This document shows, one piece after another, positions 4,792 through 48,845 of a DNA stretch of 64,000 nucleotides; position 1 is the stretch's first letter, and every line of letters starts with the position of its first letter. Made by a program: the position numbers and the translations under genes. The notes beneath the pieces are model-generated. The model made no database searches. It was not told the origin of the DNA and saw only the letters and a list, made by a program, of their open reading frames with translations. Origin of the DNA: Shigella phage ESh33; the sequence record ON528743. One strand, given 5' to 3'.

Positions 4792-6357
4792 TTAGATACC
4801 TTTAACATATACACGGCGGAAGTAAGCGTTTTTACCAAGGCTATTCAGAATAGAAGGCATACCGCTCTGGATGCGAGAAGCCGGAGCCTGAGCAGCGGAT
4901 TCTGCAAATGGGTTGATACCGATACCGTAACGAGTTTTGAATCCCATTACCGGTTGGAAGTTCTTCGGATCGGAACCACGCAGCGGAGTCAGAGCTACAT
5001 ATGGAGCATAGTAAATACCAGCATCCATTTCGTTCGGACCTTTATAACCTACAGTGAAATAATCCTGTTTAGCATACTGGTCGATATATACACGGTATTT
5101 ACCACCCAGAACACCAGCAAATACTGACTTGGTAGTATCAGTGTTAAAGCCGGTAGCCAGACCTTGCGCAGCATAAGAAATGCCAGTATCAACTGAAGCC
5201 AGAACGTTAACTACGTTACGGGAAGCGATAATGAAGTTACCTTCACCACGACCGGTCTGACGAGCAATTTCAACTGCTTCTTTGTCAATCTGGAACAACA
5301 GAGCTTTAAAGGATTCACCCGCCCAGCGAGCACCACGAATATCGATTGGGTCCTGGAAGTCAAATACACCAGCTTTAGAACCCGGAGTCAGGGTCATACC
5401 AGATTTACCAACCTGAGCTGAGTAGTTAATCCAATCAACAACTTCACGGTTGATTTCCAGCATAATTTCTGTAGCCAGAATGCCAGACAGTTCAGCATCA
5501 GCATCCATACCGTGAACAGCGCGGAGGTCCTGTGCTAATTCGATAGAGTAAGCAGCTTTCAGCTGACGAGATTTAGCTTCGATAACTTGTTTATCGATAC
5601 GGAAGCCCATTTCATTCCATGGGTTATCGGTAGAACCATTGAAACCTTCCTGGAGTTCAGCGATAGAAGTAGCCATACCTTCAGCGATTTCTACCAGTGC
5701 ACCAGCTTCCATTTGTTTCTTAATTTCAGCATCTAATTTATCTGCATCAGTTGCGCTTGCACTAATTGTTACTTGAGCAGAAGCTTGCAGATACACAGTA
5801 CCAGTGTCCTGGAAGAAGTGAGTATAGATATCACCTACTGTGGTTTCTGTGCTAGCAGCCAGAGCTGGGAATTTCTTAGCAGCACCCTGACCAGAGAACA
5901 TTGCATCTGGACCATACATTGGGTGGAATGCTTCTTTAGCACCGGCAGCGATCGGATCTTTACCATATACCGCGCGGAGTGCGAATACCTGACCGGTTGG
6001 GCTGCTCATCGGTTGAACACCGCAAATATCGAAAGCAATCAGGTTAGGAATAGCACGACGTACCATACCCATAACAGCTGGGCCAATCTGAGTTACTGCG
6101 CCAGAAGTCTGACCTGCAGCGATGTTGGTAGCATTGTAACCGTGGTCACCACCGATTTCAGCTTCTGTTAAGAAAGAACCGAATGCCTGAGCAATTTTTT
6201 CGTCTTTATATTCCGGAGCTGTCTGGAAATCTTTTTCCTGGTTTTCAAAGATTTTAGCGATAATCGCTTGTTTGCTATTAGCAATTTCCGGTAAACCTTC
6301 ACCTTCCAGTAATGGCTTCCATTTGTTCAAAAGTTCAGCTTTAGTTTTGATAGTCAT
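4792..6357 (-). CDS. 23: major capsid protein gp23 precursor
   Basis: 521 aa; N-terminus MTIKTKAELLNKWKPLLEGEG as in T4 gp23; T4 synteny. Confidence 0.95.
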   Translation of the reverse strand: MTIKTKAELLNKWKPLLEGEGLPEIANSKQAIIAKIFENQEKDFQTAPEYKDEKIAQAFGSFLTEAEIGGDHGYNATNIAAGQTSGAVTQIGPAVMGMVRRAIPNLIAFDICGVQPMSSPTGQVFALRAVYGKDPIAAGAKEAFHPMYGPDAMFSGQGAAKKFPALAASTETTVGDIYTHFFQDTGTVYLQASAQVTISASATDADKLDAEIKKQMEAGALVEIAEGMATSIAELQEGFNGSTDNPWNEMGFRIDKQVIEAKSRQLKAAYSIELAQDLRAVHGMDADAELSGILATEIMLEINREVVDWINYSAQVGKSGMTLTPGSKAGVFDFQDPIDIRGARWAGESFKALLFQIDKEAVEIARQTGRGEGNFIIASRNVVNVLASVDTGISYAAQGLATGFNTDTTKSVFAGVLGGKYRVYIDQYAKQDYFTVGYKGPNEMDAGIYYAPYVALTPLRGSDPKNFQPVMGFKTRYGIGINPFAESAAQAPASRIQSGMPSILNSLGKNAYFRRVYVKGI

Positions 6358-39235: not shown

Positions 39236-39308
39236 TGGGAATTAGCCAAGTTGGTAAGGCACTGGATTTTGATTCCAGGATGCAAAGGTTCGAGTCCTTT
39301 ATTCCCAG
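39236..39308 (+). tRNA. tRNA-Gln (anticodon UUG), no encoded CCA
   Basis: Cloverleaf by hand: acceptor TGGGAAT/ATTCCCA, anticodon loop TTTTGAT, T-arm GGTTCGAGTCC. Confidence 0.8.
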
Positions 39309-39309
39309 C

Positions 39310-39396
39310 GCGAGAATGGTCAAATTGGTAAAGGCACAGCACTTAAAATGCTGCGGAATGATTTCCTTGTGGGTTCGAGTCCCACTTCTCGCACCA
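39310..39396 (+). tRNA. tRNA-Leu (anticodon UAA), long variable arm, CCA encoded
   Basis: Acceptor GCGAGAA/TTCTCGC, anticodon loop CTTAAAA, T-arm GGGTTCGAGTCCC. Confidence 0.8.
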
Positions 39397-39401
39397 AATT
39401 T

Positions 39402-39475
<74 letters not shown>

Positions 39476-39485
39476 ATTTAATTTA

Positions 39486-39559
39486 CTCCGTGTAGCTCAG
39501 TTTGGTAGAGCGCCTGATTTGGGATCAGGAGGTCCAAGGTTCAAATCCTTGTATGGAGA
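39486..39559 (+). tRNA. tRNA-Pro (anticodon UGG), no encoded CCA
   Basis: Acceptor CTCCGTG/TATGGAG with G-U pairs, anticodon loop TTTGGGA, T-arm GGTTCAAATCC. Confidence 0.75.
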
Positions 39560-39561
39560 CT

Positions 39562-39651
39562 GGAGGCGTGGCAGAGTGGTTTAATGCACCGGTCTTGAAA
39601 ACCGGCAGTCGCTCCGGCGACTCATAGGTTCAAATCCTATCGCCTCCGCCA
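39562..39651 (+). tRNA. tRNA-Ser (anticodon UGA), long variable arm
   Basis: Acceptor GGAGGCG/CGCCTCC, anticodon loop CTTGAAA, T-arm GGTTCAAATCC, CCA encoded. Confidence 0.8.
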
Positions 39652-39656
39652 GTTTT

Positions 39657-39732
39657 GCTGATTTAGCTCAATAGGTAGAGCAACTCACTTGTAATGAGAA
39701 GGTCGGCGGTTCGATTCCGTCAATCAGCACCA
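39657..39732 (+). tRNA. tRNA-Thr (anticodon UGU)
   Basis: Acceptor GCTGATT/AATCAGC, anticodon loop CTTGTAA, T-arm GGTTCGATTCC, CCA encoded. Confidence 0.75.
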
Positions 39733-39733
39733 A

Positions 39734-39808
39734 GGCCCTGTAGCTGGAAGGTTCAAGCAAGCGACTCATAATCGCCAGATGGTGGTTCAATTCCACCCAG
39801 GGCCACCA
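39734..39808 (+). tRNA. tRNA with anticodon CAU (Ile2 if lysidine-modified, otherwise Met)
   Basis: Acceptor GGCCCTG/CAGGGCC, anticodon loop CTCATAA, T-arm GGTTCAATTCC, CCA encoded. Confidence 0.7.
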
Positions 39809-39814
39809 AATTAA

Positions 39815-39901
39815 GGGGAGTTATCCCGTAGAGGTAGCGGTGTGGACTGTAAATCCATTGTCATTGCGACTCGGGTGGTTCGACTCCATCACTCCCCACC
39901 A
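39815..39901 (+). tRNA. tRNA-Tyr (anticodon GUA), long variable arm
   Basis: Acceptor GGGGAGT/ACTCCCC, anticodon loop CTGTAAA, T-arm GGTTCGACTCC, CCA encoded; not among the eight T4 tRNAs as I recall them. Confidence 0.7.
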
Positions 39902-39905
39902 ATTT

Positions 39906-39980
39906 GGATGTGTAGCTCAATGGCAGAGCGATCGCCTGTTAAGCGATTGGTTATAGGTTCGAATCCTATCACGTCCGCCA
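39906..39980 (+). tRNA. tRNA-Asn (anticodon GUU)
   Basis: Acceptor GGATGTG/CACGTCC, anticodon loop CTGTTAA, T-arm GGTTCGAATCC, CCA encoded. Confidence 0.7.
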
Positions 39981-40094
39981 AATTTGTGACAACTGTCACA
40001 TTAATATCTACTTGACGCGATTATAGGGGTTGAACTGATCACTCTTCTCTTAATTTCGTGTGAAGACATCATGATTGTTGGAGTAGATATTAAT
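39981..40094 (+). ncRNA. 114-nt structured spacer inside the tRNA array; candidate small stable RNA or processing element
   Basis: No ORF; long-range inverted repeat CATTAATATCTAC (39998-40010) / GTAGATATTAATG (40083-40095) and local palindrome GTGACAACTGTCAC. Confidence 0.3.
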
Positions 40095-40170
40095 GTGGCC
40101 GTAGTTCAGTTGGTAGAACTCGAGATTGTGATTCTCGTAGTCATGGGTTCGACTCCCATCGGTCACCCCA
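40095..40170 (+). tRNA. tRNA-His (anticodon GUG); position -1 is T, so no encoded G-1
   Basis: Acceptor GTGGCCG/CGGTCAC, anticodon loop TTGTGAT, T-arm GGGTTCGACTCCC, CCA encoded. Confidence 0.7.
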
Positions 40171-40174
40171 ATTA

Positions 40175-40250
40175 CGGGGCATAGCTCAGAAGGAAGAGCA
40201 AGGACCTTCTAAGTCCTAGGTCGTAGGTTCGATCCCTACTGCCTCGACCA
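40175..40250 (+). tRNA. tRNA-Arg (anticodon UCU)
   Basis: Acceptor CGGGGCA/TGCCTCG, anticodon loop CTTCTAA, T-arm GGTTCGATCCC, CCA encoded. Confidence 0.75.
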
Positions 40251-46502: not shown

Positions 46503-46976
46503 ATGAAAACATATCAAGAATTTATTACTGAAGCAGCTATTAATTCTCAAATTATTGCTGAATCTTTTACTGATCTTTTGAAATTTAAAAAAGGTCAAAA
46601 AATCACTGCTGTATTGGATGATGGTACAGAAGTTGAGATGGATGTACAAGGATATAATTATGCAGTAGATGGAAAACTGTATAATAAATCTCATGCTAAA
46701 TTTGATTCATTTGACGACTTTGTTAATGCAGTTGAAGATGAAAAAACTCGTCGATCCATTGCAACTGGTGATGCTAAGGTTCTTATGGCACATGGTCATG
46801 AACGCATTCGCGCTAAACAGAATAAAATGGGTGAAGATAATTTTGCATTAGTTGGTTATCAATCTGGTAAACAAACTTATGGTTATCAGCGTACTGCTAC
46901 CATGTATAACAAAAATGGTAAAATCGCTTTCGTGAATAGTAAAGGTTCTGTTCAGTACGTCAAATCATTCAAATAA
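46503..46976 (+). CDS. internal protein (ipIII-like), capsid-targeted
   Basis: 157 aa; CTS MKTYQEFITE-A; leader DNA nearly identical to the ipII-like leader. Confidence 0.75.
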   Translation: MKTYQEFITEAAINSQIIAESFTDLLKFKKGQKITAVLDDGTEVEMDVQGYNYAVDGKLYNKSHAKFDSFDDFVNAVEDEKTRRSIATGDAKVLMAHGHERIRAKQNKMGEDNFALVGYQSGKQTYGYQRTATMYNKNGKIAFVNSKGSVQYVKSFK

Positions 46977-47129
46977 GCAAATAAGAAATATGGGAACAAG
47001 CTGGACCTCATGATTCTATGAGGGATTCCCGCCAACCTGTAATAAGGTCGAGCCCAAGTGCGGTAATGGGTAAATACAGAAATGGACAATTCATGCGCCA
47101 CGGAATGGCCCAAACTTAGAGAGAATAAA

Positions 47130-47669: not shown

Positions 47670-47995
47670 TGACAGACACGCAGCTTTTCGAATATCTTTA
47701 TTTTTCGCCAAAAACTATTAAAAATAAATTGGTGAATCATTTTGAAATTTTGGCAAATAACAACGTCTTGAGCGAATTTTATCCTAAGCAATACAAATTA
47801 CAAAAAGGTGTATTCAAAGGATGCAGAGTTTTGTGCACTGCTCCTAACGCGCAGTTAATGAATAAAATTCCATATTTTACCATGGAATTTATTGATGGAC
47901 CTTTTAAAGGACTAATCACCCAAAGTTTAATGGCATATGATTCTGAGCCATTTTTAATTAAAGAACAATCTTGGATAAATTTATTTTCTAATTGA
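47666..47995 (+). CDS. hypothetical protein (109 aa)
   Basis: ATGA overlap with previous stop; track start 47615 is TTG. Confidence 0.55.
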
Positions 47996-48002
47996 GGTTT
48001 AT

Positions 48003-48365
48003 ATGAAAGCATATCAAATTCTTGAAGGCACGCATAAAGGTACTATTTATTTTGAAGATGGTATTCAAGCACGAATTATTGTCTCTAAAACCTTTAAAGA
48101 GGACTCTTTTGTAGACCCAGAAATTTTCTATGGTTTGCATGCCCGTGAAATTGAAATTGAGCAACAGCCTACAGTTAAAATTGAAGGTGGTCAACACCTG
48201 AACGTTAACGTTCTGCGTCGCGAAACTCTGGAAGATGCAGTTAAGCATCCGGAAAAATATCCGCAGCTGACCATCCGTGTATCAGGTTATGCAGTTCGCT
48301 TTAACTCTCTGACTCCGGAACAGCAGCGCGACGTTATCGCTCGTACCTTCACCGAGAGTTTGTAA
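48003..48365 (+). CDS. autonomous glycyl-radical cofactor-like protein (GrcA/YfiD-like)
   Basis: 120 aa; C-terminal half ...[31 protein letters not shown] matches the glycyl-radical domain of E. coli GrcA as I recall it; that half has GC-rich host-like codons. Confidence 0.8.
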
Positions 48366-48586
48366 TGGCAAAGATAATTATTGAAGGTTCTAAAGATGTG
48401 CTAAATGCTTTCGCCGAGTGGTTTAGTAATTCAGGCGAACAGCAATTTAATGAAGCCTGGAATATGGGTGATATTGATGGAATTTATCCTACGACAGAAA
48501 TTTCTGTTCAAGGATATGGCATTCATGAACCTATTCGTTTAGTTGAATATGATTTATGCACTGGTGAGGAAGTCAAATATGATTGA
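48365..48586 (+). CDS. hypothetical protein (73 aa)
   Basis: TAATG overlap with previous gene. Confidence 0.55.
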   Translation: MAKIIIEGSKDVLNAFAEWFSNSGEQQFNEAWNMGDIDGIYPTTEISVQGYGIHEPIRLVEYDLCTGEEVKYD

Positions 48587-48845
48587 AGATATTAAAGGTT
48601 ATAAGCCGCATACCGACGAAAAAATCGGTAAAGTAAATGCTATTAAAGACGCTGAAGTTCGTTTAGGACTTATCTTTGATGCTTTATACGATGAATTTTG
48701 GGAAGCATTTGATAGCTGTGAAGATGATGAACTCGCGAAGAATTACGCCGAAAGCCTCGATCAGTTAACTATTGCTAAAACGAAACTCAAAGAAGCCAGT
48801 ATGTGGGCTTGCCGTGCTGTGTTCAAACCAGAGGAAAAATACTAA
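48579..48845 (+). CDS. hypothetical protein (88 aa)
   Basis: ATG 48579 with RBS GGTGAGGAAG; track start 48543 is an upstream extension. Confidence 0.5.

Follow-up and report, generated by a model that had tools for sequence, protein, structure and literature searches.

Two small proteins, Y06I (Vs.6) of bacteriophage T4 and YfiD (GrcA) of Escherichia coli, are named in the part of PMC8683613 that deals with them as the only experimentally validated spare-part proteins for pyruvate formate-lyase (PFL) that has been cleaved by oxygen, on the strength of an earlier report cited there (Wagner et al. 2001, BBRC 285:456) of radical installation by PFL-AE and rescue of oxygen-cleaved PFL for both proteins. 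The same part of that article describes residues 1-60 of YfiD as disordered and residues 61-127 as a copy of the PFL C-terminus, attributes to the variable N-terminal half a role in binding to cleaved PFL and in activation, and gives the role of the radical glycine, which is Gly102 in E. coli GrcA and Gly734 in PflB. The conservation of vs.6 and its match to Gly_radical were noted by Nolan et al. 2006, where identity to host DNA is not mentioned. There is nothing new in the gene or in its function, Y06I having been validated since 2001, and the original prediction for the DNA analysed here was right in saying so of the gene, a YfiD-like protein of T4 having been reported before. The present work is concerned with a different property of this gene, namely the origin of the DNA that encodes its radical domain.

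Cyanophage psbA and psbD are mosaics in which the phage copy of a host metabolic gene swaps internal segments with the host gene and carries patches of host-like GC content. The locus described here resembles them in being an intragenic mosaic of phage and host sequence, but it differs in that it belongs to a T4-type coliphage, whose DNA is modified and which degrades the chromosome of its host, in that the tract is short (~170 nt) and essentially unchanged from the alleles of living hosts, and in that the product is a repair cofactor and not a photosystem subunit. The usual description of T4-type phages is that they have practically no DNA in common with their hosts. Homeologous recombination, for example by lambda Red on diverged sequences, is presented as a source of phage mosaicism in PMC2327257, and the situation treated there is similar to the present one in that the sequences are ~80% identical and the crossovers lie in short identical runs; it is unlike the present one in that temperate phages and phage-phage exchange are considered there, whereas a virulent phage and a chromosomal gene are involved here. 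The literature search found no paper on the DNA-level mosaic or on the parallel Klebsiella tract described below, a prior mention in key older papers being possible.

The gene lies in a window of 64,000 nucleotides of Shigella phage ESh33 (sequence record ON528743), in which positions 48003-48365 on the + strand form an ATG open reading frame of 120 amino acids. The original prediction identified this reading frame as a GrcA/YfiD-like glycyl-radical cofactor gene, and the profile searches agree: PHROG 1209 matches the protein over its full length (residues 1-120, E 5.7e-63) and matches the N-terminal half by itself (E 4.8e-16), Pfam Gly_radical (PF01228) matches with E 2.5e-18 (67 bits, cutoff 22.2), and the structure of E. 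coli YfiD (PDB 6OWR) matches residues 22-120 with E 9.3e-42. Like the members of the GrcA/YfiD family (TIGR04365, IPR011140), the product has a C-terminal glycyl-radical domain, containing RVSGYAV and the radical glycine, that is preceded by an N-terminal region of variable sequence, and it is a small stand-alone protein with a GrcA-type N-terminal region (120 amino acids in the phage, against 127 in E. coli GrcA). It is unlike E. coli GrcA in that the identity of the N-terminal halves is only about 26%, and in that the gene is carried by a virulent phage and is AT-rich in its 5' half. Because the N-terminal half is diverged, the score of the protein against TIGR04365, the NCBIfam GrcA equivalog model, is 154.9 bits and lies under the cutoff of 170; by the NCBI rule the protein is GrcA-like and not an equivalog. 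The features of the gene to which the analysis refers are the following:

47993-47996, + strand: Shine-Dalgarno sequence GAGG of vs.6, 6 nt 5' of the ATG at 48003, overlapping the TGA stop of vs.7
48003-48365, + strand: vs.6 (Y06I) coding sequence, phage autonomous glycyl-radical cofactor, homolog of GrcA
48003-48180, + strand: N-terminal half of vs.6, AT-rich and without an E. coli DNA match, diverged from the GrcA N-terminal region but homologous to it
48181-48349, + strand: host-derived tract attributed to conversion, 169 nt long and differing from E. coli grcA only at 48284, encoding the glycyl-radical domain
48285-48287, + strand: codon of Gly95, which lies within RVSGYAV and is predicted to bear the radical (motif position computed)
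48350-48365, + strand: phage-type 3' tail, the last 16 nt of the gene (codons TTC ACC GAG AGT TTG TAA)

The gene order in the window is denV, vs.8, vs.7, vs.6, vs.5, vs.4, vs.3, regB, in which the T4 order vs.8-vs.7-vs.6-vs.5-vs.4-regB is kept, and the stop codon of vs.6 shares the sequence TAATG with the ATG of vs.5. Both the full-length family match and the placement of the gene, with vs.7 on one side and vs.5 on the other within the denV-regB region, are those of T4 Vs.6/Y06I, and the reading frame can be identified by sequence and context as the ortholog of this gene. The resemblance extends to the neighbours and to the host-like tract: vs.6 of the window is 97.8% identical in DNA to vs.6 of phage T4T, and the two proteins differ in one amino acid (P54 in T4T, Q54 in the window). 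The 2.5 kb surrounding vs.6 are 99.1% identical to the Tequatrovirus Escherichia phage JLBYU22, and 489 phage records span at least 80% of this region. Promoter and terminator scans close to vs.6 gave results no better than shuffles, and the antisense reading frames at 47988-48248 and 47779-48012 were taken as chance, nothing being found in their support.

The names given to vs.6 in public records vary, and include pyruvate formate-lyase, 2-ketobutyrate formate-lyase, acetyltransferase-related and hypothetical; the inconsistency means that the present finding also bears on annotation. The neighbouring vs genes are labelled in some records as “putative large terminase subunit” or, repeatedly, as “endoribonuclease RegB”, the pairing of labels with genes being provisional, and vs.8 has only a weak match to PHROG_2 (terminase large subunit), with E 2.9e-5. 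Two genes 3' of vs.6, the vs.4 ortholog (48579-48845, + strand) matches Pfam Acb2_Tad1_hairpin, an anti-CBASS cyclic-nucleotide sponge family, with E 1.6e-19.

The original prediction drew attention to a difference in composition between the two halves of the gene, the DNA from 48181 to 48365 being GC-rich and the N-terminal half AT-rich, and this difference is reproduced by direct measurement: GC content is 0.343 in 48003-48180 and 0.492 in 48181-48365, and GC3 is 0.22 in the 5' half and 0.47 in the 3' half. The discontinuity is also evident in a window analysis, in which the mean GC content is 0.362 (sd 0.046) and the tract falls in the top 1.1% of 185-nt windows. GC content alone must nevertheless be rejected as proof of host origin, because the window is equally GC-rich elsewhere, in the major capsid gene and in a tRNA cluster. 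What can be taken as proof of such an origin is identity at the level of DNA and of synonymous sites, not composition.

The strongest GC-rich region of the window, with values up to 0.535, lies within a reading frame of 521 amino acids at 4792-6357 on the minus strand, which we take from its translation to be the major capsid protein gp23. The tRNA cluster comprises 11 tRNA genes identified with Rfam at 39236-40247 (+ strand), and a part of it (39781-39966) is 83-90% identical to tRNA-Tyr/Thr/Asn clusters which 255 E. coli genomes carry on plasmids of ~70-120 kb, and matches no chromosome. A further stretch, 46975-47124, in which Rfam at the gathering threshold gave no match, is GC-rich locally (0.45-0.49 in 100-nt windows) and spans the gap from the end of a reading frame (46976) to the start of vs.8 (47082).

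At the level of identity, the separation of the two halves is sharp. The C-terminal 60 residues of the protein (EGGQH...TFTESL), which the original prediction had likened to E. coli GrcA, are 100% identical to GrcA residues 68-127. When the two halves are searched separately, the DNA from 48181 to 48365 aligns with grcA at 96.8% identity in each of the 5,426 complete genomes of E. coli, whereas 48003-48180 has no blastn match in the same 5,426 genomes. A megablast search with the whole 64 kb window found the grcA tract as the sole match to the E. coli chromosome, and no further host-like DNA was found in the window, except for the tRNA genes that resemble plasmid tRNA clusters. The C-terminal half is moreover closer to the host gene than to its phage relatives, with 96.7-98.3% identity to E. 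coli grcA and 72-88% to phage homologs outside Tequatrovirus and Mosigvirus. In a maximum chi-square scan of the alignment between the phage and E. coli, the breakpoint falls exactly at 48181, where the original prediction had placed it, with a chi2 of 86 that was reached by none of 2000 permutations; the crossover points are resolved only to the nearest informative sites.

What the original prediction overlooked is that there is also a 3' boundary, the host-like stretch ending before the stop codon. The only mismatches to E. coli grcA 3' of 48180 are at 48284, 48350, 48353, 48356, 48359 and 48360, which leaves one mismatch in the core and four to five synonymous differences from E. coli within 11 nt of the 3' tail (Fisher p = 1e-4 for tail against core). 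The tail codons GAG AGT are common to Slopekvirus, Pseudotevenvirus and Mosigvirus homologs. Because the host-like stretch ends at 48349 and is followed by this phage-type tail, the host-like DNA is an internal patch, nearly identical to the host at synonymous sites and flanked on both sides by sequence of phage type. In T4T the equivalent tract (corresponding to 48181-48358) agrees at 178 of 178 positions with the grcA alleles of many present-day E. coli strains and, carrying the CGT allele at 48221, is one mismatch from other E. coli genomes. The tract of the window differs from that of T4T in that its 3' end is 9 nt earlier, in that it has CGC and not CGT at 48221, and in that it has a private change at 48284.

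The same layout, with the same 5' boundary as in the phages of E. coli, is found in the Klebsiella Jiaodavirus phage vB_Kpn_AM_K5 (AM_K5; L006, 481-653), in which GC3 is 0.23 in the N-terminal half and 0.58 in the C-terminal half and the identity of the tract is 94.2% with grcA of K. pneumoniae, against 88% with that of E. coli. In the vs.6 homologs of Klebsiella Jiaodavirus the grcA tract is of K. pneumoniae type, with up to 97.1% identity, and 106 phage records, of which all those listed are Klebsiella phages, show 95-99% identity to the K. pneumoniae tract. Within 48181-48349 there are 20 sites at which E. coli and K. pneumoniae grcA differ; the window, T4T, G53 and JK36 have the E. coli state at 20 of the 20, AM_K5 has the K. 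pneumoniae state at 15, and the Slopekvirus and Pseudotevenvirus homologs are mixed. The apparent donor is in both cases the phage's own host species. These comparisons give good support to the conclusion that conversion has happened at least twice, with an E. coli-type and a K. pneumoniae-type tract that would each have come from the phage's own host. The process is not universal, because no Salmonella-type tract was found in phages above 83.8% identity and because several T4-like lineages that infect E. coli, such as Krischvirus ECD7, are without the tract; the AT-rich IMG/VR homologs L102-L106, from unassigned lineages, are without it as well.

Three records that emerged from these searches deserve separate mention. 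Escherichia phage vB_EcoM_Nami (L003), a Tequatrovirus, has an unusually diverged tract with 93% identity to E. coli and carries two amino-acid substitutions (N to H, I to S) within a radical domain that is elsewhere invariant; its divergence could be due to decay, to another donor or to sequence error. The record CP125156.1 (L176) is a K. pneumoniae “plasmid unnamed2” of 5.37 Mb with grcA, which is probably a mislabelled chromosome, and NZ_CP170105.1 (L038) is a Klebsiella sp. plasmid record of 275 kb with grcA.

The reading which is favoured here, with a probability of roughly 0.85, is that a patch of host grcA has been introduced by homologous or homeologous recombination into an old phage homolog of grcA, namely vs.6. 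The original prediction had proposed instead a fusion of host-derived sequence to a phage N-terminal domain, and the part of this proposal that holds is the host derivation of the 3' half. A fusion in which a fragment of host grcA was joined by illegitimate recombination to an unrelated phage domain would account for the sharp break in composition and identity at 48181, and the N-terminal half by itself indeed has no Pfam or NCBIfam family match, but the idea is very unlikely in view of what is found on both sides of the tract. Profiles of the phage N-terminal half and of the bacterial GrcA N-terminal half align end to end with hhalign (probability 96%, E 4.5e-9, 62 columns, 26% identity), whole-protein alignments with HMMER and NCBIfam reach back to residues 20-22, and the N-terminal half is on this basis homologous to, though diverged from, the N-terminal region of GrcA and is not a foreign domain. 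Its DNA is 89% identical to the N-halves of Mosigvirus and 73% to those of Jiaodavirus. Full-length vs.6 homologs with 3' halves that are not host-like occur in other T4-like genera and in T5-like and jumbo phages, and at least 70 other phage homologs have C-terminal halves that reach only 70-84% identity with any bacterial grcA of a panel of 80 species. The phage-type 3' tail and the preserved stop/start overlap with vs.5 are likewise contrary to a fusion. The phage therefore already had a homolog of grcA, a part of which was overwritten, and the event is better described as conversion than as fusion or capture. It could also be supposed that there was no transfer at all and that extreme purifying selection combined with convergent codon choice has kept the 3' halves alike, as might be imagined for a 60-residue radical domain that is nearly invariant across bacteria and phages; the probability of this is negligible, because phages that encode exactly the same 60 residues (L107-L109) have a DNA identity to E. 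coli of only 83.3%, the 178 of 178 identical positions in T4T include about 45 synonymous sites, and the synonymous diagnostic sites follow the host, E. coli phages agreeing with E. coli and Klebsiella phages with K. pneumoniae. In the same tract segment the identity of E. coli to other bacteria is 98.3% for Escherichia sp., 92.2% for Citrobacter, 88.9% for K. pneumoniae and 83.3% for Salmonella, and the dS of the phage tracts against E. coli is 0.07-0.15, whereas E. coli itself has a dS of 0.40 against Citrobacter and of 1.1 against Salmonella. Sequence identity in itself gives no direction, and E. coli (and Klebsiella) might in principle have taken the 3' half of grcA from phages, but such a reversal is extremely improbable when the host gene is considered as a whole. 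The 5' half of E. coli grcA is 98.0% identical to Escherichia sp., 88.6% to Citrobacter and 84.6% to Salmonella, so close to the values for the 3' half that the host gene has no discontinuity between its halves against close relatives; GC3 is similar in the two halves of the host gene (0.39 and 0.45), whereas in the phage the tract is a GC outlier. The lineage-private differences in the phage tracts are, by eye and uncounted, mostly G/C to A/T, as would be expected of host DNA decaying in an AT-rich genome. What these sequence comparisons show is the identity, the boundaries, the homology of the N-terminal half and the host-specific tracts, and they support the host derivation of the 3' half and the direction from host to phage.

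A related question is how many times the host-to-phage step has been taken. There may have been a single event for each host type, after which the E. coli-type tract spread through Tequatrovirus and Mosigvirus by phage-phage recombination; this is possible, and on balance doubtful. T-even phages recombine freely in mixed infections, and the two genera have the host E. coli and the 5' boundary in common. The flanking genes vs.7 and vs.5 are 68-72% identical between Tequatrovirus and Mosigvirus, the N-half of vs.6 is 89% identical and the conversion tract 97-99%, so that the N-half too is more conserved between the genera than its surroundings, as spread between phages would predict. Within the gene itself, T4T differs from G53 at 19 of 178 N-half positions, against 2 of 171 tract positions (Fisher p = 1.5e-4). 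On the other side, the allele at 48221 is CGC in the window and CGT in T4T and Mosigvirus, and Escherichia seems to contain both alleles, because ER1709 has CGC, L016 has CGT and the T4T tract is identical to some E. coli. The 3' endpoints of the tract also vary among phages, the tract extending to 48358 in T4T and to 48349 in the window with other combinations in L097 and L099, and the separate Klebsiella-type tract indicates that the host-to-phage step is repeatable.

According to the favoured reading, that of a conversion patch within vs.6, T4-like phages would long have carried a full-length AT-rich homolog of grcA, and in the lineage of ESh33 homeologous recombination with the chromosomal grcA of the host would have replaced ~170 nt (48181-48349), with crossovers confined to the highly conserved region that encodes the radical domain. 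The 5' edge of the tract sits just inside the structured domain, where the similarity of phage and host DNA starts; this position, and the phage-type 3' tail that was left in place, would be explained by crossovers having been possible only within the radical-domain region. The C-terminal halves of phages that have not been converted share exact runs of 14-20 nt with host grcA, which fits a rare homeologous recombination between such sequences. What we infer beyond this concerns the recombination machinery, the timing and the selective benefit.

The function of vs.6 in ESh33 as a spare part for PFL is likewise suggested by its orthology and near-identity to the T4 gene. The host activase PFL-AE would install the radical on Gly95, and the C-terminal domain would then replace the oxygen-cleaved piece of PFL (the PflB C-terminus), by which fermentative production of acetyl-CoA and formate would be restored. 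T4 shuts off host gene expression, and a phage copy of grcA would make sense because a host in which expression has been shut off cannot supply new GrcA.

The value of the finding is evolutionary and does not lie in the gene as such. A patch of 170-180 nt identical to living E. coli alleles, together with a parallel patch in Klebsiella phages, is an unusually clean match, and it constitutes an uncommon, clear example of a virulent phage whose gene was converted by host DNA, as well as dated evidence that virulent phages recombine with the chromosomal genes of their hosts where homology permits. The tract could serve as a natural marker for the rate, the tract length and the enzyme dependence of host-to-phage conversion. 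There is about an even chance that the half of the gene encoding the radical domain has been overwritten repeatedly by the grcA allele of the current host, and that each such patch then decays to the AT-rich composition of the phage. If this is true, T4-type phages would be engaged in an ongoing and measurable conversion by host genes, which would keep an auxiliary protein of the phage matched to that of its host.
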